Source: Escherichia virus TH58. From it: a DNA stretch of 64,000 nt. The notes beneath the pieces are model-generated. The model was not told the DNA's origin. It saw only the letters and a program-made list of their open reading frames with translations, and did no database searches. Location: the sequence record MT446423.1; one strand, 5' to 3'. Positions 9,594-61,756 of the stretch are shown in pieces. The position numbers and the translations under genes are program-made. Every line of letters begins with the position of its first letter. Within the stretch, counting starts at the first letter, position 1.

Positions 9594-9623
9594 GTTTACA
9601 ACCAAGGATGGTTGGAGTATAAT
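9594..9623 (+). promoter_or_regulatory. T4-type early promoter with spacer hairpin
   Basis: GTTTAC, spacer AACCAAGGATGGTT inverted repeat, TATAAT. Confidence 0.55.
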
Positions 9624-9653: not shown

Positions 9654-10148
9654 ATGAACATCAATACTACGGCTACTTACATCCTGAAAGACGAAAAACA
9701 AATCAACTGGTACGGTGCTTCAGTGCGAGCTTATGAAAAGTTTTGTGAAATTTTAGGTGCCACTCAAGGTAATAGTTTCACTATTGTTAACTTCATCAAA
9801 CAAGCTGAAGGTCCTTGGTTATTCTTAGAAATTAAAAATTCATATGGTACAATTTCTACTACCGCCCTTCCAAGCACCGACTTTGAACTGTTGATTGAAG
9901 AAGCACCTGTTAAAGATGGTCTCCACTTTGATATGGATATCGCTTGTATGTACGGTACTCTGATTAAGCCTATTGAGCCTACTGATTTGTTGTGTAAAGC
10001 TGTTTCGATTCGTCGTCCGTTTGCAGGTCCAGTGAGTGGATGGGTAACTGATCAGTGGATTGAAGACGGCGTTGAACTTCTGAACGTTGTTCATGCAGGT
10101 GATTTTAGTGTAGTTCCACGTAGTGCTGTGGTTAATATCCTTAATTAA
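9654..10148 (+). CDS. hypothetical protein, paralog 1 of tandem triplet
   Basis: C-terminal module GWVTDQWIEDGVELLNVVHAGDFSVV shared with next two ORFs. Confidence 0.55.
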   Translation: MNINTTATYILKDEKQINWYGASVRAYEKFCEILGATQGNSFTIVNFIKQAEGPWLFLEIKNSYGTISTTALPSTDFELLIEEAPVKDGLHFDMDIACMYGTLIKPIEPTDLLCKAVSIRRPFAGPVSGWVTDQWIEDGVELLNVVHAGDFSVVPRSAVVNILN

Positions 10149-10150
10149 TG

Positions 10151-10180
10151 TTGTACATCCAAGGATGGATGGAGTATAGT
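10151..10180 (+). promoter_or_regulatory. T4-type early promoter with spacer hairpin
   Basis: TTGTAC, spacer CATCCAAGGATGGATG, TATAGT. Confidence 0.45.
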
Positions 10181-10210
10181 GAATTCAATTTAAACAAAGA
10201 GAGAGAAATT

Positions 10211-10708
10211 ATGATTACTATTGGTGAAATCCTTCGTGTATCTCCTGCTTCTCGTTCTAAAGCTGCAGGTCGTCTGGTTGAAGTAGCAGGGCTTCGTACT
10301 AACGGCATGGGACGTGTTAAAGAAGTTAAAGTTCGAATCATGCCCAGTTTTGGCGGACAAGAGGCCCAGTATGCTTACGTAAGTCCTAAATTCCTGGAAA
10401 AACATATACGAGTCCAATTTGCTTCAAGCGAAGAAGTTGCACCTGCACACTTTGCTTCAAACGATATCGTTGAGCCTACTACACAGTTCAAATGGGCCCT
10501 TTGCAAAGGCGTTGAATTTATAACCGATAAAGAATTTGATTACATCGACGAATACGGTTATCCAAGCAAAACTGATATTATGTGCGGCTTCATTAGTGAC
10601 CAATGGGTTGAAGATGGTAAAAAGTTATACAATATTGTATTTTTAGGTGACTTCCGAGTTGTTGAAGAATCTGAAATCACTCGCTATGTTTCTCCTCGTA
10701 AAGCTTAA
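10211..10708 (+). CDS. hypothetical protein, paralog 2 of tandem triplet
   Basis: shares N-terminal ASRSK..LVEV and C-terminal GFISDQWVEDGKKLYNIVFLGDF with paralog 3; start at 10211 aligns with paralog 3 (an ATG at 10148 is also possible). Confidence 0.55.
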   Translation: MITIGEILRVSPASRSKAAGRLVEVAGLRTNGMGRVKEVKVRIMPSFGGQEAQYAYVSPKFLEKHIRVQFASSEEVAPAHFASNDIVEPTTQFKWALCKGVEFITDKEFDYIDEYGYPSKTDIMCGFISDQWVEDGKKLYNIVFLGDFRVVEESEITRYVSPRKA

Positions 10709-10717
10709 GGAATTATT

Positions 10718-11137
10718 ATGAATATTGCAAATCTCTCTATTGGTGATTATGTACACGTATCAGATGCTTCTCGCTCTAAAGTTGTCGGGAAGTTGGTCGA
10801 AGTTCTTTCTGTGAGTGATCCGGTTTTTGGACGTAACGAAGTTAAAGTTCGTGACGCTGATGGTAACATTGGTTACGTTAAAAGCCAATTCATTGAACCA
10901 GAAGAAAAAGCGTTCAAATGGAAACTGTGCAGATCGGTTTTAGTTGTAAAAGACCATGAATTTACTATTGCTGCTGCAACTGACGGGTCTCCATGGAAAA
11001 CTAAGCAAATAGCCGGATTTATTAGCGACCGTTGGGTAGAAGATGGTGTTAAGCTTTATAACATCGTTTTCGCTGGGCAGTTCATGGTAGTTCCTGAGTT
11101 CCAAATCAAAAAATATTGTCCAGCATCTTTTGCATAA
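10718..11137 (+). CDS. hypothetical protein, paralog 3 of tandem triplet
   Basis: GFISDRWVEDGVKLYNIVFAGQF module; AAGGA RBS. Confidence 0.55.
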   Translation: MNIANLSIGDYVHVSDASRSKVVGKLVEVLSVSDPVFGRNEVKVRDADGNIGYVKSQFIEPEEKAFKWKLCRSVLVVKDHEFTIAAATDGSPWKTKQIAGFISDRWVEDGVKLYNIVFAGQFMVVPEFQIKKYCPASFA

Positions 11138-11141
11138 AGTT

Positions 11142-11170
11142 GTTTACTTCTCCTCTAGATGTGTTACTAT
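11142..11170 (+). promoter_or_regulatory. T4-type early promoter
   Basis: GTTTAC, 17-nt spacer, TACTAT, TAGACCTATC box. Confidence 0.5.
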
Positions 11171-11198
11171 AGACCTATCAAAACAAGAGGAGAATATT

Positions 11199-11426
11199 AT
11201 GAAACGTCAAATCATTAAAAATGTAACTACTGATTCAAACATCGATGAGTTTGAAGATGTTCTGTTTAATCCTGATTTAGTTGTTGTACAGAAAAACTGG
11301 ACCGAATTTTTATGCTACACCGAAGTGGTTTACGTTTACGAAAAACTCGGTGATGAAATGCCTATCTACGGTATCTTCCGTGAAATCACTGAAAACGGTA
11401 CAACTTATTGGAAGGAAACTTACTAA
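11199..11426 (+). CDS. hypothetical small protein
   Basis: ATG 11199 after GAGGAG RBS, downstream of early promoter. Confidence 0.45.
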
Positions 11427-19801: not shown

Positions 19802-19831
19802 GTTTACAACTAAGTAGGACTATGATATAGT
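19802..19831 (+). promoter_or_regulatory. T4-type early promoter inside inverted repeat (PeSL-like)
   Basis: GTTTAC, TATAGT; arms TAGGACTA/TAGTCCTA flank the -10. Confidence 0.55.
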
Positions 19832-19857
19832 AGTCCTATCTAAAAGAGGATAACATC

Positions 19858-20574: not shown

Positions 20575-20604
20575 TTGTACAAACTCTTGAGAGCAGAGTA
20601 TAAT
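20575..20604 (+). promoter_or_regulatory. T4-type early promoter inside inverted repeat (PeSL-like)
   Basis: TTGTAC, TATAAT; arms GAGAGC/GCTCTC. Confidence 0.5.
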
Positions 20605-20648
20605 GCTCTCATGGATTACAAAAACATTAATCAATTGAGGAAATTAGC

Positions 20649-31064: not shown

Positions 31065-32192
31065 TTATTCTGATGCTTCTTTAAATTCTTGTCCAAATAC
31101 CTTACCAGTATCAGTTGAAGATTGAGTAGGTAATGTCATTATGTCTGGGGCACTTAAAGATTCTGAAACATAATTTACACGAATACCATTTATACCAAAC
31201 TCAGCAGGTTTTGAAACGCTTCCATTACCTGATACTTCAGTGAATATAATGTTTCTTAATCCGCCTTGTCCTATTGGAGCTGTACGATAACAATAAATCG
31301 TGAACCCGTCAGCACCAGCAGGAATTTCTATGTAGTCTTCATATATCTTCCATTCACCTGCGGCCCCATCAAAGTTTATATCCTTAAATGAAATAGGTGA
31401 AGTAGAAGGAGATTTAAAGAAACGAATAGAAAGACGTGTCGTTCCTTGTGCTAACAAATCAGCATCTGCCGTTAGTTGGAATTTCGTATAAAGGAAATTT
31501 CCGGGCTTCAATTTGTACCCAGCGAGAGGTGTAATAAGGGATGTTGTAGGCATCCTTTTAATTTCGTTATTAGTACCTCCAACAGCAGATAAAAATGTGT
31601 CTATCGATTCATACATACGTCTAGGGAAGCCAGTAGCACCAATATCATCAATCGTGTCATACACAACGTCAAGTGGTGTACTATAGTCAGTTGAAGTTTT
31701 CTTATTACTGTACTTAATATGTTCTAATGCTATAGCATTCTTACCGGAAATATAAAATGCTGAATAAGAAATGTCCACTATATTTAAAACTTGTTGTGCT
31801 AATGGAATAACAGAACTCCCGACTTTAGTAAACCATGCAAGAACTTCAGGAGGAAAGTTTGTTTTAGCATTAGTAACAAGGGCAAATATAAAATTAGAAG
31901 CATATGTGTCCATGTAAGTAACGAATGCACTCGACGTGGCGTCATTTACAGTAGAGAAATTATATGACTTAGATTCAACTACCGCACCTGTTGTAGGATT
32001 TATTACACGAACGTTTAATCCAACAGAAAAAACCTGAGACCCAAGTGGATTATCTTGGAACTTAATATAAGCAGGAGATGTTGATAGCGGGCAAGAGCCC
32101 GCTATGCTTAATTTAAATCGCACCGAATTGCTTTCCGATAAAAATGGCGTTTGGACATATCCTTGTCCAAACTTAGCCATAAATTTTTCCAT
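31065..32192 (-). CDS. 35: long tail fibre hinge connector gp35
   Basis: 375 aa; position between 34 and 36. Confidence 0.85.
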   Translation of the reverse strand: MEKFMAKFGQGYVQTPFLSESNSVRFKLSIAGSCPLSTSPAYIKFQDNPLGSQVFSVGLNVRVINPTTGAVVESKSYNFSTVNDATSSAFVTYMDTYASNFIFALVTNAKTNFPPEVLAWFTKVGSSVIPLAQQVLNIVDISYSAFYISGKNAIALEHIKYSNKKTSTDYSTPLDVVYDTIDDIGATGFPRRMYESIDTFLSAVGGTNNEIKRMPTTSLITPLAGYKLKPGNFLYTKFQLTADADLLAQGTTRLSIRFFKSPSTSPISFKDINFDGAAGEWKIYEDYIEIPAGADGFTIYCYRTAPIGQGGLRNIIFTEVSGNGSVSKPAEFGINGIRVNYVSESLSAPDIMTLPTQSSTDTGKVFGQEFKEASE

Positions 32193-44475: not shown

Positions 44476-44528
44476 GACTTTTGATTATAATTTACTCATG
44501 GATGAGTTAAACTAAGTGAGAAAATATA

Positions 44529-45694: not shown

Positions 45695-46105
45695 ATGAAA
45701 GATATCGCCGCCGAATATTCCTTTATTAAATATACAGAATTGGAGCTATTAGAAGATGCAACAATTAAAACAGTTGATGTCCCTAATAAGAAAAATGTCA
45801 TATACGCTATTGCTATAGATGACGAACTTGTGTATATTGGTAAAACCAAGAATTTAAAGAAACGCATTAACTATTATCGAACAGCCATAAATCGAAAAGA
45901 CCAGACTTCAGATTCAAGAAAATCACTTATGATTTTGGATGCCTTAATGCAAGGCAAAAAGGTTGAATTCTGGGCCCGCCAATGTTTTGACCTTTCAGTC
46001 ACCAACGAACTTGGTTCAATGACCATCGCAACAATGGACCTTGAAGAACCGCTTTTTATCAAAAAGTTCAACCCGCCTTGGAATATCCAACATAAGAAAA
46101 AGTAG
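45695..46105 (+). CDS. denA: endonuclease II (GIY-YIG fold)
   Basis: 136 aa as T4 EndoII; VIYAI...LVYIGKT GIY-YIG-like motif; between nrdB and RNA ligase. Confidence 0.6.
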   Translation: MKDIAAEYSFIKYTELELLEDATIKTVDVPNKKNVIYAIAIDDELVYIGKTKNLKKRINYYRTAINRKDQTSDSRKSLMILDALMQGKKVEFWARQCFDLSVTNELGSMTIATMDLEEPLFIKKFNPPWNIQHKKK

Positions 46106-46134
46106 TTTACACACCACAAGGATTGTGGTACAAT
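46105..46134 (+). promoter_or_regulatory. T4-type early promoter with spacer hairpin
   Basis: GTTTAC, spacer CCACAAGGATTGTGG, TACAAT. Confidence 0.5.
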
Positions 46135-46152
46135 TTAAAAAAAACTAACTGA

Positions 46153-47286
<1,134 letters not shown>

Positions 47287-47288
47287 CG

Positions 47289-47318
47289 GTTTACAAACAC
47301 CAAGGATGGTGATACTAT
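47289..47318 (+). promoter_or_regulatory. T4-type early promoter with spacer hairpin
   Basis: GTTTAC, spacer CACCAAGGATGGTG, TACTAT. Confidence 0.5.
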
Positions 47319-47347
47319 GGCTTTATCAACAACACGAGGAGAAAATT

Positions 47348-47848
47348 ATGAATATGCAATTGATTACTAACGATATGGTTGTGGCAGCATTTGGTGATTC
47401 TACAGATGGAATCCGGGTCTTTAAGAAAGGCCGTGCAGTTGGTTATCTTACAGACCTTCGTACTACTCTAGCGAAAAATGCTAAAAAGAAATTAAAGCAA
47501 AAGGAATATTCCACCCGATACGCTGAAGAGAAACGTGAAGCAATGCCGGAAGCAGTTAATGCTATGGTAGAATTTCTTCAAAACAATTTGACTAAATACG
47601 ACGCTAATGTGTTCGTTAATATTAGTCAACCTAACGTACATATCGCGGGTATAAAATTCTACATCATTTGCGACCCTCTTACCGACAAATTCAACCGTCT
47701 CGGAATTTCAAGTCCGTATCATACAGCAGAAGAGTTGTGTGTATTGTTTGAATCGTACAAAATTCAGTGTGATGGTCCGAAAACCGTTCTTATCAATGGA
47801 TTATCCCGAGATGAAATCATTGAGATTATTAAAACATGCTTAAAGTAA
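47348..47848 (+). CDS. alc: Alc, inhibitor of host transcription on C-containing DNA
   Basis: 167 aa from ATG 47348 (as T4 Alc); position between RNA ligase and pseT. Confidence 0.55.
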   Translation: MNMQLITNDMVVAAFGDSTDGIRVFKKGRAVGYLTDLRTTLAKNAKKKLKQKEYSTRYAEEKREAMPEAVNAMVEFLQNNLTKYDANVFVNISQPNVHIAGIKFYIICDPLTDKFNRLGISSPYHTAEELCVLFESYKIQCDGPKTVLINGLSRDEIIEIIKTCLK

Positions 47849-48192
47849 ATGCATCATATATTGTAGTGGCAGCTTTTGCGGTTGTTGCTACTGTAACAAT
47901 AGCATTTCTGAACCATAAAGTCGATTCGCTGAATACTGAATTGGCTTCTGTTAAAGAGACTGCTAAAAACAATGCTAAAGTATTAGACGACTTCAAGATT
48001 CAATATCAGTCTATAGAAGAAATGACATATAAGAATCGTGTTTTAGTTGACCAACTTAAGGCTGAAAATGAAAAGCTCCGTAAGGATTCGAAGAAGAAGA
48101 ACGTGGTGGCAAGTAAGCCAGGATTGGTCGAAAAACAAATCAACAGGTCCTTCGATTCCTTTGCAGAAGACCTCAGGAAGCTCTCAGAATGA
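47836..48192 (+). CDS. i-spanin (Rz-like; T4 pseT.3 equivalent)
   Basis: N-terminal TM helix followed by coiled-coil-like region. Confidence 0.6.
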   Translation: MLKVNASYIVVAAFAVVATVTIAFLNHKVDSLNTELASVKETAKNNAKVLDDFKIQYQSIEEMTYKNRVLVDQLKAENEKLRKDSKKKNVVASKPGLVEKQINRSFDSFAEDLRKLSE

Positions 48193-48479
48193 TTAAATTA
48201 ACTGTGGCTGTATTATCTATTGGTCTCCTAGTTGGATGTACTCAGGATGTGCCAGTAAGCCCTAAAGAAACTTTACATCCTTCATGGCCTACGCCTATTT
48301 CCGAATACAACCAGAAATGGCAAGTAAAGGTTATTGATGGTAATCCATGGGTTGGAATGCCGTTTGAAGACTCTCAAGAATTTCGTATCTGGTTAAACGA
48401 CGTAAAAAGATATGTACATGACCAGAAGACTATGTTATGTTATTATCGTAGTGGTTTAAAAGAGGAAAAATGCCAATGA
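48189..48479 (+). CDS. o-spanin lipoprotein (Rz1-like; T4 pseT.2 equivalent)
   Basis: signal peptide with lipobox LLVGC; immediately follows i-spanin. Confidence 0.6.
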   Translation: MIKLTVAVLSIGLLVGCTQDVPVSPKETLHPSWPTPISEYNQKWQVKVIDGNPWVGMPFEDSQEFRIWLNDVKRYVHDQKTMLCYYRSGLKEEKCQ

Positions 48480-48694
48480 CTAAAGAACAGCATGAATACA
48501 TTAAAGGGCTTATCTATGAATCTGAAATGGCGGCTATGATTTATGGGCGACAGATTCAACGATTAGAATCTTTGCCTCCGACTAATGACCGCTTGTTAGT
48601 TCAGTCTCGTGCTAATCTGAAAAATGAATATCAGAATAAGTGGGCAGTAGCTACTAAAGCTCTTCATGAGTATATTGGATCTTTAGTAAAATAG
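48470..48694 (+). CDS. hypothetical protein
   Basis: 74 aa. Confidence 0.45.
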   Translation: MPMTKEQHEYIKGLIYESEMAAMIYGRQIQRLESLPPTNDRLLVQSRANLKNEYQNKWAVATKALHEYIGSLVK

Positions 48695-48723
48695 TTTACA
48701 AACTCTCGGGAGCGGAGTATAAT
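48694..48723 (+). promoter_or_regulatory. T4-type early promoter inside inverted repeat (PeSL-like)
   Basis: GTTTAC, TATAAT; arms GGGAGC/GCTCC. Confidence 0.55.
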
Positions 48724-48751
48724 GCTCCTATGGATAATTGAGGAAATCTAA

Positions 48752-49050
48752 ATGAAAACATTACTAGAGAATTACATCAAACGGTCCGATGAGTATATTG
48801 ATATCTGCCGTGGAATGTCACTTGCCAATTATGACAAAGATGCAGCAAAGGCATTAGATGAAGCAGGTAAAGCTCTTCGTAAAGCTGCTAAAGAAAAAGG
48901 GGTGGATTTGCAACAACTCAAAAGTCATATGATTAAATTTATTTCTTCAAACGTTAGAAGTAAGTCAATTAATAAAAACGTTGCTGAAATTAATAAAGAC
49001 CGTCGCGAGCATAACATTCGTATTCTTGAAACTTTCTTAGGAATAAAATA

Positions 49051-49051
<1 letters not shown>
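48752..49051 (+). CDS. hypothetical protein
   Basis: 99 aa after early promoter. Confidence 0.45.
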
Positions 49052-50137
<1,086 letters not shown>

Positions 50138-50138
<1 letters not shown>

Positions 50139-50329
50139 TGAAACGATTATATGAAGTGATTGAGGCCATCGAACAGCATAAAGAATATTTGTTTGTAGCC
50201 TGGCCTTTAGTAAATGGACAATTCGGTATTGATGTGCTGGACTATGAGCATGAAGAACGTTTGGACGGCGGTATATTTGATAACGTCGACCAGGCAATTG
50301 AATGGTTAAATGAAAACTATGTACGATAA
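50138..50329 (+). CDS. hypothetical protein
   Basis: 63 aa. Confidence 0.4.
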
Positions 50330-50534
50330 ACATCATGAAATCGAAGATGAAGCATACAAAATGCTTCGTAAACTAGTGGGACTTAATATGAGTCCTACAT
50401 TAATTAACAAACTCGCAGGAATTCGTAATGATCTGAATACTCGTTACAAAGGCGAATATCATGTAGAGTTTGTTCCTGTAGGTGAACCGACCGAGCGATT
50501 TGTTGTTCGAGTTAAAGTAAATACTGTACACTGA
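50310..50534 (+). CDS. hypothetical protein
   Basis: 74 aa. Confidence 0.4.
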   Translation: MKTMYDKHHEIEDEAYKMLRKLVGLNMSPTLINKLAGIRNDLNTRYKGEYHVEFVPVGEPTERFVVRVKVNTVH

Positions 50535-50541
50535 GGTAATT

Positions 50542-50817
50542 ATGTTCCCAACTTATTCTGAAATTGTAAAGGTAGTCTTCAGTCAGATTATTGCTAATAA
50601 TATGTTTGAAGTGCTTGATAATGCAGCCGAACTCAGAGTTCATTCTCAACTAACTCATGTACTCAATGCTTTGCTCCCAGACCAAGTAGATTCTATTGCT
50701 ATTACTCTTCTCCCTGGGTCTGCACACGCCATAGTGGTATTTGATCTTGACGGCGATTTAGTTATCCAATGTGATATCAATTTCGGTACACAAAAAATTG
50801 AATGCAAAGCAATTTAA
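50542..50817 (+). CDS. hypothetical protein
   Basis: 91 aa. Confidence 0.4.
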   Translation: MFPTYSEIVKVVFSQIIANNMFEVLDNAAELRVHSQLTHVLNALLPDQVDSIAITLLPGSAHAIVVFDLDGDLVIQCDINFGTQKIECKAI

Positions 50818-50819
50818 TG

Positions 50820-50849
50820 GTTTACAACATGGTGGAGTTGTGATACTAT
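50820..50849 (+). promoter_or_regulatory. T4-type early promoter with spacer hairpin
   Basis: GTTTAC, spacer ACAAC..GTTGT, TACTAT. Confidence 0.5.
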
Positions 50850-50877
50850 AACTCTACCAACAAATGAGGAAATAGAA

Positions 50878-51114
50878 ATGCTAAGTGAAAACCCAATTAC
50901 AGTACACGAATTTCAGATTAAAGTAAAAGAATTTGCTCAAGCACTCATCAATAAAGTGTCTGAACGTTTCCAAGATGCAACATTACGAGTTATTCAAGAA
51001 TCTCCACGTTCTTTTCTCATAATCGTTAATCCTAAAGATGGTGACCAAATTACTAATCTTAAATTAGGCAGTGATGGTCTTGTTGAAGCAACTCGAGTAT
51101 ACGGAACACTATAA
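50878..51114 (+). CDS. hypothetical protein
   Basis: 78 aa after early promoter. Confidence 0.45.
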   Translation: MLSENPITVHEFQIKVKEFAQALINKVSERFQDATLRVIQESPRSFLIIVNPKDGDQITNLKLGSDGLVEATRVYGTL

Positions 51115-51234
51115 TGAGAGCTATCTCATTACTATCGAGAATGGTCATAAATCTGAGCACTACCAACTTAGCCTGTCTAATCCGGTTAAAGGTATTGTTG
51201 AATCAGAATCTTTTTATATCTCCTAAGGATTGTT

Positions 51235-52227
51235 ATGTTACCTGTCGTCAGAAAACTTATTTCTCCAAAAGAACTGGCTGAGATTATTCCTTTGTCGGAA
51301 GCTTACGCATCACAAGTGGCTTCTCATCGCGAACAAGTTAATTCGATTATGAATGGTGAAGACCCACGCAAACTTATTGTTGTAGGTCCTTGTTCAATTC
51401 ATGACCCTATTGCTGCTGTTGAATACGGCAAACGACTGGCTGAACTTCAAACTCGTCTTCCTAATGTTCTGTTAGTGATGCGCGTTTATTTTGAAAAGCC
51501 TCGAACTACCGTAGGTTGGAAAGGTCTTGTAAATGATCCATATCTTGACGGAAGCTTTGATATGAACCACGGTCTTATAGTTGCACGAACATTGTGTCGT
51601 AAACTTCTACGTATGGGACTTCCATTAGCAACTGAAGTATTAGACCCATTCACGATTAAGTATCTTTCTGGTATTTTCTCATGGGTTGCTATTGGCGCCC
51701 GTACGACTGAAAGTCAGACACATCGTGAAATTGCTTCAGGTCTACCGATGTGCGTAGGCTTCAAGAACGCAACTAATGGTTCTATTAAAGTAGCTACAGA
51801 CGCGATGTATAGTGCCGCCTGGCCTCATCGGTATATGGGTATGGACGTCGATGGTACTGTAGGCATTGTTGAAGCTGAAGGTAATCAGAATACGCATATC
51901 GTATTGCGTGGCGGGACTAACGGCCCGAACTATCATTCTTCTGATATTCAAGAAGCTTCTAACAAAGCAAGTGCATTAGGTCTGAATCATTATGTAATGG
52001 TTGACTGTAGCCATGCAAACGCTGATGGGTATTATAGCAATCAAATTGGTATTGGTAAAAATTTAGCAGCTAATGATTTGGTCAAAGGAATTATGATAGA
52101 ATCATTCCTACATGAAGGAAATCAAAAAATTTCTGATAATATGTCCTATGGCGTTTCCATTACCGATGCGTGTATCAGTTGGGAACAAACTAAAGAGCTG
52201 TTAACTTATATTAATAAGGTTCAATAA
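51235..52227 (+). CDS. class I (AroG/AroF/AroH-type) 3-deoxy-D-arabino-heptulosonate-7-phosphate (DAHP) synthase
   Basis: 330 aa; blocks VGPCSIHDP, RVYFEKPRTTVGWKGL, IGARTTESQ and VESFLHEGNQ match E. coli AroG active-site regions; TAAGGA RBS. Confidence 0.8.
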   Translation: MLPVVRKLISPKELAEIIPLSEAYASQVASHREQVNSIMNGEDPRKLIVVGPCSIHDPIAAVEYGKRLAELQTRLPNVLLVMRVYFEKPRTTVGWKGLVNDPYLDGSFDMNHGLIVARTLCRKLLRMGLPLATEVLDPFTIKYLSGIFSWVAIGARTTESQTHREIASGLPMCVGFKNATNGSIKVATDAMYSAAWPHRYMGMDVDGTVGIVEAEGNQNTHIVLRGGTNGPNYHSSDIQEASNKASALGLNHYVMVDCSHANADGYYSNQIGIGKNLAANDLVKGIMIESFLHEGNQKISDNMSYGVSITDACISWEQTKELLTYINKVQ

Positions 52228-52808
52228 TGAAAGCTAGCACATATCTTCAAATTGCTTATTTGATTTCTCAAGAATCAAAATGTTGTTCATGGAAAGTTGG
52301 TGCCGTCATTGAAAAAGATGGACGCATTATCTCTACTGGATATAATGGTTCACCGGCCGGTGGCGTTAACTGTTGTGAACATGCATCTGAAAATGGTTGG
52401 TTGAAGAATAAACCAAGCCCGGTCATCGTTGCTGGCCATAAAGAAGGCACTACAGCATTTGGACGGGTAGATAATTTTGTTTTAGCTAAAGAACATCGGG
52501 CCGCTCATAGTGCATGGTCTGCTAATAATGAAATCCATGCAGAATTGAATGCAATTTTGTTTGCAGCTCGTAAAGGTAATTCTATTGAAGGTGCTACGTT
52601 ATATACGACGCTTTCCCCATGTCCTGATTGCACTAAAGCTATTACGCAGTCAGGTATTAAAAAGGTTGTATACGCAGAATTATACGATCGATCTCCTGAA
52701 AATTGGGCAGACATTCTAAAACAAGCAGGTATTGAAGTAATTCAGTACTCTCGTAATAATCTTCGTTCTCTGAATTGGGAACAAATTCGAAACTTTTGTG
52801 GTGAATAA
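52227..52808 (+). CDS. cd: dCMP deaminase
   Basis: 193 aa; zinc motifs HAE and PCxxC (SPCPDC); start overlaps DAHPS stop (TAATG). Confidence 0.85.
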   Translation: MKASTYLQIAYLISQESKCCSWKVGAVIEKDGRIISTGYNGSPAGGVNCCEHASENGWLKNKPSPVIVAGHKEGTTAFGRVDNFVLAKEHRAAHSAWSANNEIHAELNAILFAARKGNSIEGATLYTTLSPCPDCTKAITQSGIKKVVYAELYDRSPENWADILKQAGIEVIQYSRNNLRSLNWEQIRNFCGE

Positions 52809-52809
52809 T

Positions 52810-53106
52810 ATGATTTTAACTGAACAAGAAACTATGGTTCTTCGTGAACGTATTAAAACTATTCTGTCTGTAGGCGTTCATTGTGTTGTATTTGAAAAGG
52901 CTAACGGCGAGGTACGCACCATGTTTGCTTCGCGCGATGAACTTGAAGTCAAATATGAAAATAACAATCCAGCAACAGAAGTTCGTTATGAACCTCGTGA
53001 ATCAGTTCGAGCATTCGATACCAAGTTAGGTCAGTGGCGTTCTTTCCGCCTTGATAAAGTAATTTCGGTTGATGGTACTCCGGTAGAACGTTTGCTTCTT
53101 ATGTAA
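52810..53106 (+). CDS. hypothetical protein
   Basis: 98 aa from ATG 52810. Confidence 0.45.
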   Translation: MILTEQETMVLRERIKTILSVGVHCVVFEKANGEVRTMFASRDELEVKYENNNPATEVRYEPRESVRAFDTKLGQWRSFRLDKVISVDGTPVERLLLM

Positions 53107-53133
53107 TATGCTTTACGAATAGTATGGTATTAT
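53107..53133 (+). promoter_or_regulatory. MotA-dependent middle promoter for gene 31
   Basis: TATGCTTTA MotA box, 12-nt spacer, TATTAT. Confidence 0.5.
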
Positions 53134-53163
53134 TAATCTATCGTCAAATAACAAGGAAATAAG

Positions 53164-53496
53164 ATGTCTGAAGTACAACTCCCAATTCGTGCTGTTGGTG
53201 AATATGTCATTCTGGTTTCTGAACCCGCTCAAGCAGGTGATGAAGAAGTTACCGAATCAGGACTTGTGATTGGTAAACGTGTTCAAGGTGAAGTTCCTGA
53301 ACTATGTGTAGTTCATTCTGTAGGTCCTGATGTTCCTGAAGGTTTTGTTGAAGTCGGTGATTTGACTCCACTGCCAGTTGGACAAATTCGAAATGTTCCA
53401 CATCCATTTGTGGCTTTGGGACTTAAACAACCTAAAGAAATTAAACAGAAATTCGTAACATGCCACTATAAAGCTATTCCATGTCTTTATAAGTGA
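53164..53496 (+). CDS. 31: GroES-like co-chaperonin gp31
   Basis: 110 aa; almost identical to remembered T4 gp31. Confidence 0.9.
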
Positions 53497-53504
53497 TATA
53501 AATA
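53497..53504 (+). promoter_or_regulatory. late promoter upstream of rIII
   Basis: exact TATAAATA immediately after gene 31 stop. Confidence 0.45.
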
Positions 53505-53620
53505 ACTATATGAAGAGAACACTCTTCTAAGCGGTAGCCTACAACTGAGAGACTTGTCGAAAGAAGGTGAAATTCAGACGAACGTGGCTACTAAATATTA
53601 TCTCGAATTGAGAATTTAAA

Positions 53621-53869
53621 ATGATTAAACAATTACAACACGCTCTCGAACTGCAACGCAACGCATGGAATAACGGTCATGAAAACTACGGTGCATCTAT
53701 TGATGTTGAAGCCGAAGCTCTTGAAATCTTACAGTATTTCAAACATCTGAATCCAGCACAAGCCGATCTTCGCGATATCCTGGTCCAGAAAGATGAATTG
53801 AAATATGCTAAGCCTCTGGCTTCTGCAGCACGTAAAGCAGTTCGTCATTTTGTTATTACCCTGAAGTAA
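53621..53869 (+). CDS. rIII: rIII lysis-inhibition accessory protein
   Basis: 82 aa; near-colinear with T4 rIII. Confidence 0.8.
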   Translation: MIKQLQHALELQRNAWNNGHENYGASIDVEAEALEILQYFKHLNPAQADLRDILVQKDELKYAKPLASAARKAVRHFVITLK

Positions 53870-53947
53870 GTTAAATCGAGGAGCCGTCGAACTGTTTGAT
53901 TAATGATTTGCGAATCATTATAGTTTTAAGACCTCAACAGTTTTACG

Positions 53948-53976
53948 GTGTACCTCTTGAATGTATTTTGTACTAT
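53948..53976 (+). promoter_or_regulatory. possible early promoter
   Basis: GTGTAC -35, 17-nt spacer, TACTAT -10; begins long structured leader. Confidence 0.4.
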
Positions 53977-54133
53977 CACGCGTCAGAAAAAGGTTATCTG
54001 TCTAAGTCGTGGTCGGTATGATGACGGGTTTATGGTTATCCTGTCGTTAAATATCCAAAAACCTATGTTCCCCTCGAGGGCTTGCGCAGGCAATGTCAAT
54101 AAGTCCTGCATTTTCATTTAAAGAGAATTTATA

Positions 54134-54313
54134 ATGGCAAAACAAGCTAAAGCAAAGAAAGCAGTTGAAAAGAAAGTTGATGGTACCTCTAAACGCGCTG
54201 GATACAAGCGTGGGTCGAACTCTCGTATTAATCAAACAGTTGAGAAGATCATGCGCAGAGCACGTGCAGTTCTTCGAGATGATGCTTCTCGTTTTGGAAA
54301 GGTTGTTGCATAA
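54134..54313 (+). CDS. small highly basic protein (59 aa)
   Basis: ATG 54134; Lys/Arg-rich; followed by strong terminator; not in ORF track. Confidence 0.45.
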   Translation: MAKQAKAKKAVEKKVDGTSKRAGYKRGSNSRINQTVEKIMRRARAVLRDDASRFGKVVA

Positions 54314-54318
54314 TTTTA

Positions 54319-54341
54319 GGGAGACCGAAGTCTCCCTTTTG
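54319..54341 (+). terminator. rho-independent terminator after small basic ORF
   Basis: GGGAGAC-CGAA-GTCTCCC hairpin plus TTTT. Confidence 0.65.
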
Positions 54342-54373
54342 TGCGTTTAGGGCAGAAAAAGTTTAAAAAAGAT

Positions 54374-54402
54374 GTTTACTCTCCTGTAGGATGTGTTACT
54401 AT
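54374..54402 (+). promoter_or_regulatory. T4-type early promoter
   Basis: GTTTAC, 17-nt spacer, TACTAT, TAGACTTGTACC box. Confidence 0.5.
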
Positions 54403-54443
54403 AGACTTGTACCACCTAATCAATAAAACAATCGGAGAATAAA

Positions 54444-54812
54444 ATGAAAATCAATCTGAACTCATACATCAAATGTAAAGACCACGATGGTTATAAAGCT
54501 ATCGAAATTAAAGAATTCCAGTGGATGTTATACAAAGAGCAATTTGAGTTCGTAGGTTGTATGACACCTGAAGGTCCTTCAGATGATTTCTCTTGGAAAA
54601 TTGTGTTAGCAAACTTTTTCACAGGTGACACATACGAATTAAAAACTATTATTACCGGTAAAATTCGTTCAGAAACATATGTTGACGAAGAAACTGGTTA
54701 CTCTGAAGATGTTACATGGTATCAAAATGGACGCATTACAGCAGATAACCTGATCGAAAAAATGAAAGCCAAAGGTGTTTTAAATTTAGACAATTGGATT
54801 AAAGTTGCATAA
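54444..54812 (+). CDS. hypothetical protein
   Basis: 122 aa; own early promoter cassette; GGAGAA RBS. Confidence 0.5.
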   Translation: MKINLNSYIKCKDHDGYKAIEIKEFQWMLYKEQFEFVGCMTPEGPSDDFSWKIVLANFFTGDTYELKTIITGKIRSETYVDEETGYSEDVTWYQNGRITADNLIEKMKAKGVLNLDNWIKVA

Positions 54813-54816
54813 AACA

Positions 54817-54845
54817 GTTTACTTTGGTACAGGTTATGTTATTAT
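54817..54845 (+). promoter_or_regulatory. T4-type early promoter inside inverted repeat (PeSL-like)
   Basis: GTTTAC, TATTAT; 10-bp arms TTGGTACAGG/CCTGTACCAA flank -10. Confidence 0.55.
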
Positions 54846-54886
54846 AGACCTGTACCAACAAACAACTTAAACATCTGGAGAATAAA

Positions 54887-55252
54887 ATGAACTACACCAA
54901 CTTCGAACGTAAATATGTTTCTAACGGTATCGCTGGTTCTATTGATACGATTTGTTTATGGAAACATAAAAATGGTTCAGTATGTGAAATTGAGCAGTAT
55001 ATGACTCCTAATTACGTTTATATGCGATTTGAAAATGGCATCACGGTTTCAGTCACAATGGAAGGTTCCAACTTCAAAATTGCATTAGATGACGATTTCC
55101 GTCAACGTGATTTAGGTACTCATCCTTGCTGGAACGGTGTTAATCGTAAACTTCTGGTTAAAACTTGGATTCGTCATATCCTGAGTAACCGAGCTAAACC
55201 TGAACATCTCGAAGCAATCTTTGATGTAGTTCTTAACGAATTCGATATCTAA
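54887..55252 (+). CDS. hypothetical protein
   Basis: 121 aa; own early promoter cassette. Confidence 0.5.
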   Translation: MNYTNFERKYVSNGIAGSIDTICLWKHKNGSVCEIEQYMTPNYVYMRFENGITVSVTMEGSNFKIALDDDFRQRDLGTHPCWNGVNRKLLVKTWIRHILSNRAKPEHLEAIFDVVLNEFDI

Positions 55253-55287
55253 TTTAACTGGGAGCCGAAGCTCCCAGTGAGGAAATT

Positions 55288-55902
55288 ATGTTTAAAGTTA
55301 ATACTTTTTATAAAATGAATTTTAAAAATGGGGATATTACTCCACGCCTTAAAAACATGTTCTCATATGACCTTATTGAGCCTTTTGAAGTTTTAGAAGT
55401 TACTGATGCCGGCTCGGTTTGTGAAATTAGAACTTCTGAAGGTAAAATTTATCAGGCAGGTGTTGGTAAATTTAGTAATTGTTTTACTTTAATATTCTCG
55501 ACCGATTTAGATGAGCATTTTATTGAATGTCCTAACCCTAAGGTCTACGAAGTTCCACATCAAGAAACTAAGAAAAACGGCCCGCACGAATATACGAAGG
55601 TTGAAACTCCTCACGGCGTGATGTGGCGTCATAACTCTCCTTTTGGAAGTAAAGGAACATTTGCTCAACCATCTAAACCGTATGACGATGAAAAATACAT
55701 CGTCGTCTTTTTATCTGAACAGGGTACTCAAGACCGTGGATGCCAACGAAGTGGTTTACTAAGTGAACTTGAAGCTCATAACCAAGCACGTGAATTCGTT
55801 GAGAAAAATCCTGGTTCTGAAGCTCTAGTCATGAAAGCAATTACTCAATATATCACTGCTCAACCTGTTGTTCATCCGGTAGAAATTAATTTCGTTAAGT
55901 AG
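55288..55902 (+). CDS. hypothetical protein
   Basis: 204 aa. Confidence 0.5.
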   Translation: MFKVNTFYKMNFKNGDITPRLKNMFSYDLIEPFEVLEVTDAGSVCEIRTSEGKIYQAGVGKFSNCFTLIFSTDLDEHFIECPNPKVYEVPHQETKKNGPHEYTKVETPHGVMWRHNSPFGSKGTFAQPSKPYDDEKYIVVFLSEQGTQDRGCQRSGLLSELEAHNQAREFVEKNPGSEALVMKAITQYITAQPVVHPVEINFVK

Positions 55903-55932
55903 TTTACATCCAAGGACGGATTAGAGTATAAT
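55902..55932 (+). promoter_or_regulatory. T4-type early promoter with spacer hairpin
   Basis: GTTTAC, spacer ATCCAAGGACGGAT, TATAAT. Confidence 0.5.
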
Positions 55933-55955
55933 GATTTCTTTAGTAAGTGGAAAAT

Positions 55956-56153
55956 ATGAAATTTTTAATAGCACAAACAGTCCAATTAAAAGGTGTTGGA
56001 ATCCCTGGGATGATTTTTAAAGTTCTCCATGAATTTAAAACCGCTGCTGGAATTATCAATGAAGCGTATGCTGTTCAATGGGTTGATGGGACTTCTGACA
56101 TACGTATGGGTAAAGAGTTATCTCCTATTAAAGGGTTGAAACATGTTGAATAA
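55956..56153 (+). CDS. hypothetical small protein
   Basis: ATG 55956 after early promoter. Confidence 0.4.
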   Translation: MKFLIAQTVQLKGVGIPGMIFKVLHEFKTAAGIINEAYAVQWVDGTSDIRMGKELSPIKGLKHVE

Positions 56154-56355
56154 ATTAATCCAGAAATTTTTTGGTACGGAAATGATTGAAGTTACGTATC
56201 GTGTGACTGATGTAAGCCCGTGGGCCCGAAAAGTTGAACCATATACTAAAACAATTAAAATGCTGAAATATGACGGTGGATTATCTATCAAAGACCGTCT
56301 ACCGGCTTATGGACATTGGGCTGATGTTGAAATTATAAGTGTTAAAGATGTCTGA
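56143..56355 (+). CDS. hypothetical small protein
   Basis: 70 aa. Confidence 0.4.
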   Translation: MLNKLIQKFFGTEMIEVTYRVTDVSPWARKVEPYTKTIKMLKYDGGLSIKDRLPAYGHWADVEIISVKDV

Positions 56356-56806
56356 GTTAGAGATTAGAAGCAATTTTAGATGGCCGTCATGTGCATTAAG
56401 TAACTTTGCTCAATGGCCTTTTGTTATGGATGGTATTCAATTCGGAGGTCTTGAAGGATTTCTCCAAGGATGTAAGGTGAAAAATGTTGAACAACAAAAA
56501 CGTATATTTGGGTTGTCTGGATTGGCTGCACAGCAAGCTGGAAGGTCTTATGCAAGAGCTCAGGACCGTGGGACTCTCTTCTGGTTAGGAGTTCCATTTT
56601 CAAGATACTCCGAAGCGTGGAAAGAATTATACACAAATGCATATTTTGAAGCCGCGATCCAAAATAAGGGGTTTCGTGATGCCTTACAAGCCTCTAAAGG
56701 AAAAATTTTGAAGCACAGCATGGCCAGCCATCTAACAAAAGATGATACAATATTAACCGAAGCCGAATTTATTGATGTGTTAAACCTATTAAGAGACTCT
56801 TTATGA
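56348..56806 (+). CDS. NADAR (YbiA/DUF1768)-like protein
   Basis: LSNFAQWPF..DG..F...E..LQ..K resembles the NADAR N-terminal signature. Confidence 0.5.
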   Translation: MSELEIRSNFRWPSCALSNFAQWPFVMDGIQFGGLEGFLQGCKVKNVEQQKRIFGLSGLAAQQAGRSYARAQDRGTLFWLGVPFSRYSEAWKELYTNAYFEAAIQNKGFRDALQASKGKILKHSMASHLTKDDTILTEAEFIDVLNLLRDSL

Positions 56807-57627: not shown

Positions 57628-57636
57628 GGGTTAATT

Positions 57637-57906
57637 ATGTTTGTAGTTCATGATATTACAGATGGCAAAAACACCACACGTGACTACGGTCACGTTAACA
57701 TGTTCTTTCGAGACTGGCCATTGTTTCGTTCAGTAAAAGACGCAGAAATATTTAAAGAGTGTGTTGAACAAGGGTTCATCTACATTTCAGAATACTATGT
57801 TGAAGGACTCGGTAAATGGATTACCACTTATCAGAAAACGCTGAAATCGCTTCTAGATGAAGTGGCTTATAATAGAACCGTAACCAAAATCGAGGACATC
57901 AAATGA
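57637..57906 (+). CDS. hypothetical protein
   Basis: 89 aa; coupled to ligase start. Confidence 0.45.
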   Translation: MFVVHDITDGKNTTRDYGHVNMFFRDWPLFRSVKDAEIFKECVEQGFIYISEYYVEGLGKWITTYQKTLKSLLDEVAYNRTVTKIEDIK

Positions 57907-59584: not shown

Positions 59585-59603
59585 GAGCCTTCGGGCTCTT
59601 TTT
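59584..59603 (+). terminator. rho-independent terminator upstream of alt
   Basis: AGAGCC-TTCG-GGCTCT hairpin plus TTTT. Confidence 0.6.
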
Positions 59604-59605
59604 GG

Positions 59606-59619: not shown

Positions 59620-59639
59620 ATTACTAAAAGGAAAACACT

Positions 59640-61727
59640 ATGTCTGAACAATTAAATGAAGTGTTTGAATCTGAAGGCAGTCTTCCTGTCGTCAATTTGA
59701 ACCCTAAAGCTAAAGTTCCACAAGTCTGGAAAATTGGTGATATCGATACAAACATCGTAGTTCGTTTATTCTCTTACCTTTCCGAAGGCGATGCTGTAAA
59801 ACAAGTTAAACTTGGTGACAAATACGCTCATGTCGTTATTATGAGTCTTTCTGAAAAGGGTAATCTCGCTGAATTGAAAAATGGCCTTGGTCCTGCTCCT
59901 ATTGATGCAATCAACACCATTTTCAATACGGTATATGAACAGGTTAAAGCTCTTCGTATGGATGCAGTTCTGTTCCGATTCCCTACCAAGAAATTGAAAG
60001 GACGTGGACAACAACTTCAAACTCTTCTTGCTCGTTTAGTTTCTACTAAAACCGGTGGTCGTTTTAAAGTATTGTCTGCAATGTATCAATTCACAGGTAA
60101 ACACACATATGTGATGATGGTTCGTAAAAATGCCGACATTGAAGATATTAAAGGCATCCCTAACATTAACACAGAGTTGTACACGAAAGTAGATTCTGAT
60201 GTTGGTGAAGTTTATGTGAGTAAAAAGACTGGCGAAAAAGTCACCAAAGAAATGGCTATCGCTGGTTCTATTGCTGCTGTAGAAGAAAAACGTAAAGATA
60301 AGCCTGTTATTGCTCGTACTAAAATTTCTCGTCGCGCTATTGCAGCAAGTCAATCTTTAGAAGCTGACCGCCAAGAAGGTGAGCTATTCCAGAAATACGA
60401 AAATTCTGCTAAAGAAGTTAGTGGCCCAGCTACAGCTGAATTACTTCCTGAAGCATATGAAATCGTACTAGCCCAAGCATCGTCCACAGCAAAAGGCACT
60501 TTAGTTGCTGATATCGAAAATAAGATTTATAATCGTATTGATGAATCCTTTAGATTTGCTGATGAAGTTTCTTATGGCAGTGTTATTAAGCCAACTTTAG
60601 AAAAGTTTGCTAAGAAAATTAAAACTGAAAAAACAACATCTGTTAAAGCATTAGCTGCTTTTGTTGAAGCTGCAAACGAAATTGCAGACTCTATTAAAGA
60701 CGAATGGTTTGAAGATTTTAGACGAGATAATTTCCAACTGGCTGACGACGTTTTAGCTGAAGTATCTGAAAAAACTTGGAAACAACGTAAATCAGCGTTC
60801 TTGTCTAATGTGATGTATACTTATGCACGAGAATCGGCTAGAGGCACCTTTAATATAACAATGAATCGGGACCCTAAACAATACTCTGTTGCTGAAAAAC
60901 GAGCTATTCGTGAATATGCCTCTTCTGCGTATACCGATATCAATAATATGTTGTTAGGCCGTTATAAACCGGATTTTTACGATGTTGCAGATGAAGATGA
61001 AGTTAAACGCGCTATCGATGGTCTTGATTCGGCGTTTTTAAATGGAGACCGTTTACCTGAAGGACTAACGTTATATAGAGCTCAGTCTATCAGAATGCCT
61101 ATTTACGAAGCAATGGTTAAAAATAAGGTATTCTACTTCAGAAACTATGTTTCCACTTCACTAGCTCCTATTATTTTCGGTGGGTTTAAAGAGAACGTTG
61201 CCCTTGGACTTGCTCCTGAAGAAGTTCGCAAAGAGCTTAACATTGACAATAATGACGAAGGTGTTACTATTTCTCCTAGTCAAGTAAGAACAGCTATGCA
61301 TGCACCAGAACAAATCCGTGTTAACGTTGGATGGGCTATTGATGGCGCCCATAAAGTTAACGTGATTTATCCTGGACAGTTGAGTAATCACCCTAATGAG
61401 CAAGAAATTATTTTGCCTAGAGGCATTCTCTTGCAGATAAATAAAATTACGGATGCGTCATCTGACACTGGTGCAGGTTTAGAATCCAACCTTAAATTTA
61501 TTCAAGCTGAAGTCATGTCCTCAGACCAGTTGGACGAAGCTGTCATTTACGATGGTGATGTTCTCATGGAAACAGGCGAGGTTGTTGCTATGACTGGTGA
61601 AATCGAATCGGATGAGCCGGTATCGTTCTCTTCATTTGTAGAAAAAACTAGTGCTCCTAAAGGATTGAAATTGTTAGCATCTTTAATGGATTTAGAATCA
61701 GTTCCGTTTAAATTTGTCCAAGGATAG
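59640..61727 (+). CDS. alt: Alt ADP-ribosyltransferase (virion-packaged)
   Basis: 695 aa; R (LYRAQS), STS (YVSTSLAP), E-x-E (EQEIILPRG) in C-terminal part; T4 Alt size and position. Confidence 0.85.
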   Translation: MSEQLNEVFESEGSLPVVNLNPKAKVPQVWKIGDIDTNIVVRLFSYLSEGDAVKQVKLGDKYAHVVIMSLSEKGNLAELKNGLGPAPIDAINTIFNTVYEQVKALRMDAVLFRFPTKKLKGRGQQLQTLLARLVSTKTGGRFKVLSAMYQFTGKHTYVMMVRKNADIEDIKGIPNINTELYTKVDSDVGEVYVSKKTGEKVTKEMAIAGSIAAVEEKRKDKPVIARTKISRRAIAASQSLEADRQEGELFQKYENSAKEVSGPATAELLPEAYEIVLAQASSTAKGTLVADIENKIYNRIDESFRFADEVSYGSVIKPTLEKFAKKIKTEKTTSVKALAAFVEAANEIADSIKDEWFEDFRRDNFQLADDVLAEVSEKTWKQRKSAFLSNVMYTYARESARGTFNITMNRDPKQYSVAEKRAIREYASSAYTDINNMLLGRYKPDFYDVADEDEVKRAIDGLDSAFLNGDRLPEGLTLYRAQSIRMPIYEAMVKNKVFYFRNYVSTSLAPIIFGGFKENVALGLAPEEVRKELNIDNNDEGVTISPSQVRTAMHAPEQIRVNVGWAIDGAHKVNVIYPGQLSNHPNEQEIILPRGILLQINKITDASSDTGAGLESNLKFIQAEVMSSDQLDEAVIYDGDVLMETGEVVAMTGEIESDEPVSFSSFVEKTSAPKGLKLLASLMDLESVPFKFVQG

Positions 61728-61756
61728 TTTACAAACACATGGATGTGTGATACTAT
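61727..61756 (+). promoter_or_regulatory. T4-type early promoter with spacer hairpin
   Basis: GTTTAC, spacer ACACATGGATGTGT, TACTAT. Confidence 0.5.

Follow-up and report, generated by a model that had tools for sequence, protein, structure and literature searches.

Why should the spacer of a phage promoter be palindromic? The question is raised by a 64,000-nucleotide stretch of DNA from Escherichia virus TH58 (MT446423.1; the whole stretch is called the window below), in which positions 9594 to 9623 hold a promoter with a short inverted repeat between its -35 and -10 elements. An earlier note, made from the letters alone, had grouped this site with six others, at 10151, 46105, 47289, 50820, 55902 and 61727, and all seven sequences were found where it had placed them. 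We found that they are early promoters of the T4 type and that the spacers of six of them share one motif, a stem of 4-6 base pairs (bp) with a C-G closing pair and an ANGGAN loop. Taken as a whole, the explanation that we consider best is that of early promoters whose spacer hairpin acts on RNA reading through from upstream, with the host protein CsrA as its most likely reader, and we hold it at somewhat less than an even chance.

The seven sites are early promoters of a known class

The seven sites are sigma-70 promoters of the T4 early type, with a GTTTAC(A/T) -35 element, a spacer of 17 ± 1 nucleotides (nt) and a TAnnnT -10 element. The GTTTACA that the earlier note had regarded as common to all of them was present at every site except 10151, whose -35 element reads TTGTACA; by itself, GTTTACA is not enriched in the window (19 matches, 13.4 expected). 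An extended -10 element (TGn) is found at 46105, 47289, 50820 and 61727, and GAG stands there instead at 9594, 10151 and 55902. The early consensus, built from 113 non-redundant promoters with a 17-nt spacer, has T at -17, G at -16, T at -15, G at -14 and A at -40, as well as C at -3 and A at +1, the start-site A lying about 7 nt past the -10 element. Within the consensus spacer, the 5' half is C-rich (-28 to -25) and the 3' half is G/T-rich (G at -20, a purine at -19, and T at -17 to G at -14).

T4 early promoters have been described as 'uber' sigma-70 promoters composed of UP, GTTTAC -35, TGn and -10 elements (Miller 2003; Nolan 2006; Hinton 2010). The window sites have the same -35 element, the same spacing of 16-18 nt, the GT-rich extended -10, TAnnnT, the A-rich stretch from -40 to -44, C at -3, A at +1 and the same position before early genes. 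Since all three elements (-35, TGn/GT-rich extended -10, -10) match the standard T4 early consensus, the separate promoter class that had been suggested was not upheld; the class to which all seven sites belong is already known and well described. What differs is the treatment of the spacer, which in the published promoters is regarded as extra consensus of unknown meaning.

All seven sites start at the stop codon of the upstream gene, or a few bases past it, and end 23-30 nt ahead of a Shine-Dalgarno (SD) sequence and ATG; the intergenic gaps are about 55-60 nt and are occupied by the promoter. The 9594 promoter is the best sigma-70 match within the first 20 kb (11/12), and its orthologue in phage NBG1 (MH243438) carries the annotation 'promoter'. 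We also observed a promoter subfamily in which (G/A)GAG directly before TATAAT replaces TGn (9614-9623, 10171-10180, 20592-20602, 48711-48721 and 55922-55932). At T4 49880-49893, a junction without an early -35 element, the same GGAGTATAAAT follows an AGCC-AAGGAT-GGCT hairpin.

The spacer hairpin has a conserved loop and covarying arms

The spacer palindromes reported in the earlier note are real and represent one motif at six of the seven sites, whereas 50820 has a different structure (Table 1). GGA in the loop of a short hairpin was found at these six window sites and in 22 further instances, and the ANGGAN loops seen were AAGGAU, AUGGAU, ACGGAU, AAGGAC, AAGGAA, AUGGAA and AUGGAG. The 3' arm of the hairpin coincides with the GT-rich extended -10 (TGTGG), and the distance from GGA to the -10 element ranges from 5 to 10 nt, so that the register moves by 5 nt. 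The hairpin at 9599-9614 folds as RNA with -6.9 kcal/mol (z = -2.3).

Within the window alone, 7 of 22 early-promoter spacers contained a perfect stem of at least 4 bp, compared to 1.8-3.0 expected (p 0.002-0.02) from mononucleotide shuffles, column permutation and random genomic 17-mers; some copies are paralogous, and the excess is modest and no more than suggestive. The following results come from a comparison set of 176 unique early-promoter cores, taken from the window, from T4 and from about 90 related T4-like viral contigs, with contig loci collected around rnlA, dda, motB and DNA ligase and labelled L001 and onwards. The results showed that, in the hexaloop register NNGGAN, stems of at least 4 bp close 24 of the 71 GGA triplets in these spacers, compared to 0-9 when the 3' partner was slid by 1-3 nt. 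Such closure occurred in 22 of 32 cases with A at loop position 1 and in 2 of 39 cases lacking this A. All 22 closed ANGGA hairpins have a C-G closing pair, and the loop A and the GGA are invariant, while stem pairs 2-4 are C-G in some cases and A-U in others, each with 8-10 sequences in which both sides have changed. Paired cells made up 74.6% of the alignment, versus 54% after shuffling and 27-49% after sliding, and the covariation score was 0.455 versus 0.171, the observed score being reached by none of 500 shuffles of the 3' bases.

The arms that change together include CCACA/TGTGG, CACCA/TGGTG, ACACA/TGTGT, GCACA/TGTGT (with a G.U pair) and GCAC/GTGC, further TCACC/GGTGA, ACAACC/GGTTGT, AACC/GGTT and ATCC/GGAT, and in T4 AGCC/GGCT and TTATACC/GGTATAA. 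The motif is also biased towards the sense strand, with 12 sense and 3 antisense copies in the window, where shuffling gave 5.2 ± 2.2 and reached the observed number in 1 of 200 trials, and with 17 sense and 5 antisense copies in T4. Counted genome-wide, GGA-loop hairpins of every kind with stems of 5 bp or more were in mild excess (18 versus 10.7 after shuffling), and the tighter ANGGAN definition was needed. About 14% of early promoters carry the ANGGAN motif. In the window, an Rfam gathering scan gave zero matches, and a covarying ANGGAN spacer hairpin in a subset of promoters was not described in the literature searched.

Two other structures in the window were recorded. Between nrdA and nrdB, the sequence ACTC-ATGGAT-GAGT (44494-44507) has an ANGGAN loop and stands right after a TATAAT-like sequence, outside any early-promoter spacer. 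On the minus strand, a perfect 9-bp stem, GTTTGGACA / TGTCCAAAC, surrounds an AAGGATA loop (32149-32172) and lies 20-43 nt inside the 5' end of an open reading frame (ORF) of 375 amino acids, probably gene 35, that comes after a tail-fibre gene of 1290 amino acids.

The hairpin is kept at some orthologous junctions

The idea that the spacer holds a second conserved signal beyond sigma-70 recognition was borne out at the 61727 orthologues and at T4 rnlA. Conservation of the palindrome in orthologous promoters of related phages, which the earlier note had made its test, gave a mixed picture: it was found for 61727 and 46105; at 9594, 10151 and 47289 it is lineage-restricted, and the 55902 promoter is missing in other genera. 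The orthologues of 61727 keep the hairpin though their downstream proteins share 31-51% identity and their flanks diverge, and 4 of 18 matches are without it. Their stems are GCACA/TGTGT (with a G.U pair), CCACA/TGTGG, CCAC/GTGG and GCAC/GTGC, their loops contain TGGA, AGGA, CGGA, AAGGAC or AAGGAA, and between -28 and -15 they form a series from A-T through G.T to G-C. Upstream of rnlA in T4 (about 137480; L004-L008, ~60 nt upstream), a MotA box, ATGCTTC, takes the place of the -35 element, and the junction retains a CCACA-TGGAG-TGTGG hairpin and a TACTAT -10. With this MotA box, the T4 counterpart of the 46105 promoter resembles a middle promoter.

The 9594 hairpin is the same in L001 and L058, the 10151 promoter has orthologues in L001, L058, L059 and L060, and both are conserved only within Mosigvirus. 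The search for relatives of the MotB locus gave just 3 loci, so that orthologues of these two sites are few and all from this genus. In other genera, the gene behind 55902 lacks a separate promoter and shows translational coupling via TAATG. T4 carries the motif in the early promoters at 2458 (before rIIA.1), 50973 (before nrdC.4) and 167086, and at the junctions 49893 and 53333, which are without an early -35. IMG/VR contains 64 copies of the exact 16-mer CCACAAGGATGTGGTA; 30 of them stand in an early-promoter context, where they precede at least 10 unrelated genes on T4-like contigs. In a 64-kb contig (L123, IMGVR_UViG_3300020045_009460), the 14-mer CCACAAGGATGTGG was seen at position 2154, where it fills the 17 nt between the TTGACA and TATGAT elements of a canonical promoter; this contig is not of T4 size, and the motif may extend beyond T-even phages.

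Three kinds of pairing alternate in early-promoter spacers

The ANGGAN hairpin appears to be one of three interchangeable RNA pairings encoded by the spacer, which provides the 5' arm in each: pairing with the SD region (anti-SD), pairing around the -10 element, and local pairing. In the literature searched, this arrangement was not described; the promoters and the PeSL (promoter-early stem-loop) cassettes discussed below are known. Anti-SD spacers were found in about 30 orthologues of the alc promoter from many genera, where they are complementary to the SD region 35-45 nt downstream. Their arms are compensatory (TCTCCATTTGGTT/AACCAAATGGAGA, TCCTCATCAG/CTGATGAGGA and CCTCTCGTTTTTG/CAAAAACGAGAGG). 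RNAalifold gave zero consensus structure for 18 alc-promoter orthologues because the arm registers shift between genera, and the alc pairing was judged by per-sequence complementarity with a re-pairing null. An anti-SD spacer would conceal the SD on read-through RNA and leave it accessible on transcripts started at the proximal promoter. Anti-SD spacers were also observed in the window at 11142-11200 (TCTCCTCT/AGAGGAGA), 5074 and 54374, and outside it in loci L004-L042 downstream of rnlA.

In the second kind, the spacer pairs with 10-16 nt right after the -10 element, which lies in or near the loop (GGTAGGACT/AGTCCTACC, CCGGAAGT/ACTTCCGG and TGGGTGTAAGG/CCTTACACCCA). The odd site of the seven, 50820, belongs here: its hairpin at 50830-50859 has -16.9 kcal/mol (z = -4.4), none of 200 shuffles was equally stable, and its orthologues have compensated arms, with GGTAGAGTT/AGCTCTACC in T4 and the first two of the arm pairs just given elsewhere. 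The window sites 19802, 20575 and 54817 are of the same type, and 48694 likewise with a shorter stem of 5 bp. Hairpins around the -10 element were noted at 19810-19840, 20586-20615, 48705-48730 and 54824-54860, and in T4 at 57990, 65799 and 73939; their stems reach 13-14 bp, include G.U pairs and show strong compensation between phages.

When spacers were re-paired with the downstream regions of other promoters, pairing runs of at least 8 bp were expected 2.3 times for the anti-SD kind and 1.1 times for the kind around the -10, compared to 26 and 24 observed. The three kinds are mutually exclusive: among the cores, 24 are anti-SD, 31 pair around the -10 and 25 are ANGGAN, and no ANGGAN core carries another kind. 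The kinds replace each other at orthologous positions. At the alc and motB.2 positions, T4 has anti-SD spacers and the window has ANGGAN; at the motB position, T4 pairs around the -10 (GGGACC/GGTCCC) and the window again has ANGGAN. The alc promoters of L003 and L045 have ANGGAN hairpins, and L027 is ANGGAN where L028 pairs around the -10.

The hairpin probably acts on read-through RNA

Since the hairpin lies upstream of the start site of its own promoter, it can be present only on RNA that was started further upstream and continues through the junction. Delayed-early RNA classically arises by such read-through (Hinton 2010), and read-through into the region 46105-61727 is plausible because the sole strong terminator upstream of it lies at 39365. 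From the comparison of sequences, we infer that the hairpin probably has its role at the RNA level. A precedent for the logic is found at T4 e, soc, 49 and I-TevI, where the promoter lies in or just past the 5' arm and a hairpin that sequesters the ribosome-binding site forms only on read-through RNA. The neighbouring anti-SD spacers are the direct analogue of these cases. In the T4 cases, the promoters are late ones and the SD or AUG is paired directly. The ANGGAN hairpins do not pair with the SD, the longest spacer-SD complement at the cited promoters being at most 5 nt; the SD is covered by spacer pairing at the neighbouring 11142 and in most alc orthologues.

In the mechanism that we propose, the host sigma-70 RNA polymerase would read the sites as normal T4-type early promoters. 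With the promoter filling gaps of 55-60 nt, a second code would be written into its free positions, and the 5' arm (CCACA and variants) would have evolved to pair with the reused extended -10. On polycistronic read-through RNA, the hairpin would then mark the junction ahead of the next cistron.

CsrA as a candidate reader

The optimal CsrA/RsmE site is A/U-CANGGANG-U/A, and the consensus from SELEX (systematic evolution of ligands through exponential enrichment), RUACARGGAUGU, has invariant ACA and GGA and a six-nt loop closed by AC...GU, with stems of about 4 pairs. The phage motif likewise has an invariant GGA with an upstream A, a six-nt loop, an AC...GU closure and a short stem. We found A-CANGGANG-T at 12 of 18 unique sites, and the commonest phage version, ACAAGGAUGU, is the CsrA SELEX consensus. 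Unlike the CsrA/RsmE targets, the phage element sits in a promoter spacer, and so on a subset of transcripts only. CsrA specifically as the reader is possible, though doubtful.

A CsrA dimer can bridge sites 10-63 nt apart, and glgC is repressed in such a manner. A second GGA, in the SD, is located 33-38 nt downstream at five of the six ANGGAN sites of the window, and the GGA pair at 50820 is 34 nt apart. From an anchor on the hairpin, a CsrA dimer could reach across to this SD GGA; translation of the following gene would then be silenced on read-through RNA alone, the same outcome as that of an anti-SD spacer in cis. Such an effect in trans would duplicate the anti-SD effect in cis, which fits the interchangeability of the two. 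With similar reserve, we suggest that T-even phages may place consensus CsrA hairpins in about one in seven early-promoter spacers, and that host CsrA may bind only read-through (delayed-early) RNA, either silencing the next cistron or being titrated by early RNA. CsrB is reported to be stabilised during T4 infection, and hosts are reported to be fitter against several phages when csrA is knocked down. A tblastn search of the window and of the fetched loci gave no gene for a CsrA homologue.

Several results weigh against this interpretation. The SD GGA is equally common in all early leaders (88% versus 89%) and is absent from the 10151 leader; being near-universal, it makes the dual-site geometry uninformative. 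A CsrA link to T4-like mRNAs was not found in the literature searched. The hairpins are weak, with -3.5 to -7.5 kcal/mol and z just -0.1 to -2.3, and a test of RNA-level pairing, comparing G.U with A.C in long stems, gave 7 versus 2, which leans in the expected direction and is not significant. Local stems of at least 5 bp numbered 33, about twofold over the 16.7 (maximum 29) obtained from chimeras of the 5' half of one spacer and the 3' half of a second. The general promoter consensus already includes the 3' arm and the G at -20 and overlaps half of the motif, so that part of the motif comes free, and with a C-rich 5' half and a G/T-rich 3' half in that consensus some complementarity is expected. 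The motif almost always adjoins the -10 element, and this position leaves room for a role at the DNA level. The promoters are not independent, and orthologues and possibly copied cassettes inflate the counts.

Other explanations of the hairpin

It is rather unlikely, in our estimate, that the hairpin has no function and arises incidentally where a C/A-rich 5' half of the spacer meets the extended -10 with its TGTG, having been spread by PeSL-like copying or recombination of cassettes. The composition of the consensus (C-rich from -28 to -25, G/T-rich from -20 to -14) and the yield of stems from the chimeric spacers agree with this explanation, as do the identical 16-mers before many unrelated genes and the fact that promoter cassettes are known recombination substrates (Arbiol 2010; Comeau 2014). 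However, the slid-register and shuffle controls fail to yield the pairing, closure needs the loop A, the C-G closing pair is fixed while the inner pairs covary, and one locus keeps the motif across genera despite its diverged proteins and flanks.

PeSL cassettes and the sites described here are both repeated early-promoter cassettes with a stem-loop, and both occur in T4-type phages. PeSL cassettes are linked to modular exchange, and the same may hold for the sites described here. The PeSL stem-loop lies just upstream of the -35 element and is a terminator, of the form GN-loop-CN in RB49 and AGNA-loop-TCNT in T4/PST (Arbiol 2010; Comeau 2014), whereas the window hairpins lie between -35 and -10, are short and have a conserved loop. 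No U tract was found after the window hairpin stems, and the terminator scan flagged none of the sites. The hairpins around the -10 element may correspond to the AGNA-loop-TCNT stem-loops of T4/PST. Switching of spacer type at orthologous positions and a lineage-specific promoter, that at 55902, were both seen. The recombination hotspot suggested in the earlier note matches the PeSL cassettes and this switching, and the palindrome itself is not needed for it.

A generic RNA hairpin without a specific reader, which would stabilise 3' ends after processing or act as a pause or barrier and owe its GGA to the G-rich preference at -20/-19, seems unlikely. Two other covarying types of spacer hairpin at the same junctions speak for it, the general consensus itself has G at -20 and a purine at -19, and the hairpins are located just past stop codons. 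Stems of 4-6 bp with such folding energies are nevertheless poor exonuclease barriers, and the loop is conserved far past composition, given the dependence of closure on the A and the 5-nt shift of GGA relative to the -10.

The second candidate after CsrA is the phage endoribonuclease RegB, for which the hairpin would be a substrate; cleavage of read-through RNA at the junction, independent of ribosomal protein S1, would be followed by decay, and we regard this as improbable. RegB cuts GG^AG/U in intergenic regions of early mRNAs, where the hairpins also sit; alone, it recognises GGA, efficiently when the GGA is unpaired and with the fourth nucleotide partly constrained, and regB is widespread among T4 relatives. 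The phage loops resemble RegB sites in their unpaired GGA, constrained fourth base and early intergenic location: most are GGAU, with a U able to pair with the loop A, and the T4 rnlA copy is GGAG. Yet the fourth nucleotide in 23 instances was U in 13, C in 6, A in 3 and G in 1, so that about 40% are not GGAG/U. The context of strong, S1-dependent RegB sites, GGAGRAYARAA, is absent, and the 3' side, in place of an A-rich context, is GUGGUA, a G/U-rich stem arm. The invariant loop A and the C-G closure answer no known RegB requirement, and both are CsrA/RsmE determinants.

The DNA-level operator proposed in the earlier note, a palindrome bound by a dimeric phage or host protein, is very unlikely; a factor for early-promoter shut-off would be an example of such a protein. 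The motif does overlap the core promoter and adjoins the -10 even at T4 sites without an early -35, the mechanism of early-promoter shut-off is still open in the literature (Hinton 2010), and a 5-4-5 palindrome is of plausible size for a dimer. Its half-sites vary in a compensatory way, a signature of pairing, its centre is asymmetric with GGA always on the sense strand, its register relative to both -35 and -10 varies by 5 nt, and sense-strand G.T pairs occur (L074 and T4 50973). Together, these features argue against a symmetric-dimer operator and against a fixed contact with polymerase. In addition, the share of early promoters with the motif is too small for a general shut-off. DNA cruciform extrusion (4-6 bp arms too short), a fixed RNA-polymerase contact (variable register), an internal SD or start site (variable loop N and lack of a following ORF) and an antisense promoter (the minus-strand match at 46133 mirrors the palindrome) were rejected.

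Genomic context and features

The window comes from an RB69-like T-even coliphage (Mosigvirus); the 3-kb region around the 9594 site has 96-97% identity to members of this group, namely the phages F2, NBG1, ST0 and HX01. Early transcription in the window runs along the plus strand. The gene order, read from ORF sizes, their order and the annotations of related records, is modA/srd/dda/dexA/motB/cef/goF/39, followed by tail-fibre genes on the minus strand and then by 32/frd/td/nrdA/nrdB/denA/rnlA/alc/pseT/cd/30. The motB.2 homologue behind the 9594 promoter is annotated as MotB-like in related records. It and motB each have their own, near-identical (A/T)CCAAGGATGG(T/A)TGGAGTATA promoter, and a paralogue of motB with about 40% identity follows motB at roughly 10718 (region 9654-11137). 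The likeness of the 9594 and 10151 promoters may in part come from copying of a promoter cassette.

Table 1. Early promoters and spacer-associated hairpins of the seven sites in the window.
Feature	Position	Strand	Remarks
Early promoter, GTTTACA, 17-nt spacer, TATAAT	9594..9623	+	upstream of T4 motB.2 homologue, start 9654
Spacer hairpin CAACCA-AGGA-TGGTTG (hexaloop reading AACC-AAGGAT-GGTT)	9599..9614	+	GGAG next, before -10
Early promoter, -35 TTGTACA, -10 TATAGT	10151..10180	+	upstream of motB, start 10211
Spacer hairpin CATCCA-AGGA-TGGATG	10156..10171	+	
Early promoter	46105..46134	+	upstream of rnlA (gene 63), start 46162
Spacer hairpin ACCACAA-GGA-TTGTGGT (7-nt loop: CCAC-AAGGATT-GTGG)	46113..46129	+	-7.2 kcal/mol
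Early promoter	47289..47318	+	upstream of alc, start 47348
Spacer hairpin CACCA-AGGA-TGGTG	47298..47311	+	
Early promoter	50820..50849	+	other structural type than remaining six sites
13-bp hairpin centred on -10, UGGUGGAGUUGUG-AUAC-UAUAACUCUACCA, G.U pairs	50830..50859	+	RNA fold
Early promoter, 18-nt spacer	55902..55932	+	upstream of 65-amino-acid ORF, start 55956
Spacer hairpin ATCC-AAGGAC-GGAT	55908..55921	+	weak, ~-3 kcal/mol
Early promoter	61727..61756	+	upstream of 97-amino-acid ORF, start 61786
Spacer hairpin ACACA-TGGA-TGTGT	61735..61748	+	

Significance

The early promoters of T4 have served as a model for decades, and the conservation of their spacer and the control of early versus delayed-early expression are only partly explained (Hinton 2010). 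If the spacer doubles as a signal on read-through RNA, promoter information beyond the sigma-70 elements would be explained. Junctions of 55-60 nt would then encode both transcription and post-transcriptional control. For annotation, logos of early promoters should be read with care, since they mix at least three overlapping RNA codes. The CsrA link, if true, would bring a global regulator of the host into the temporal gene control of T-even phages, interchangeable with anti-SD spacers in cis.

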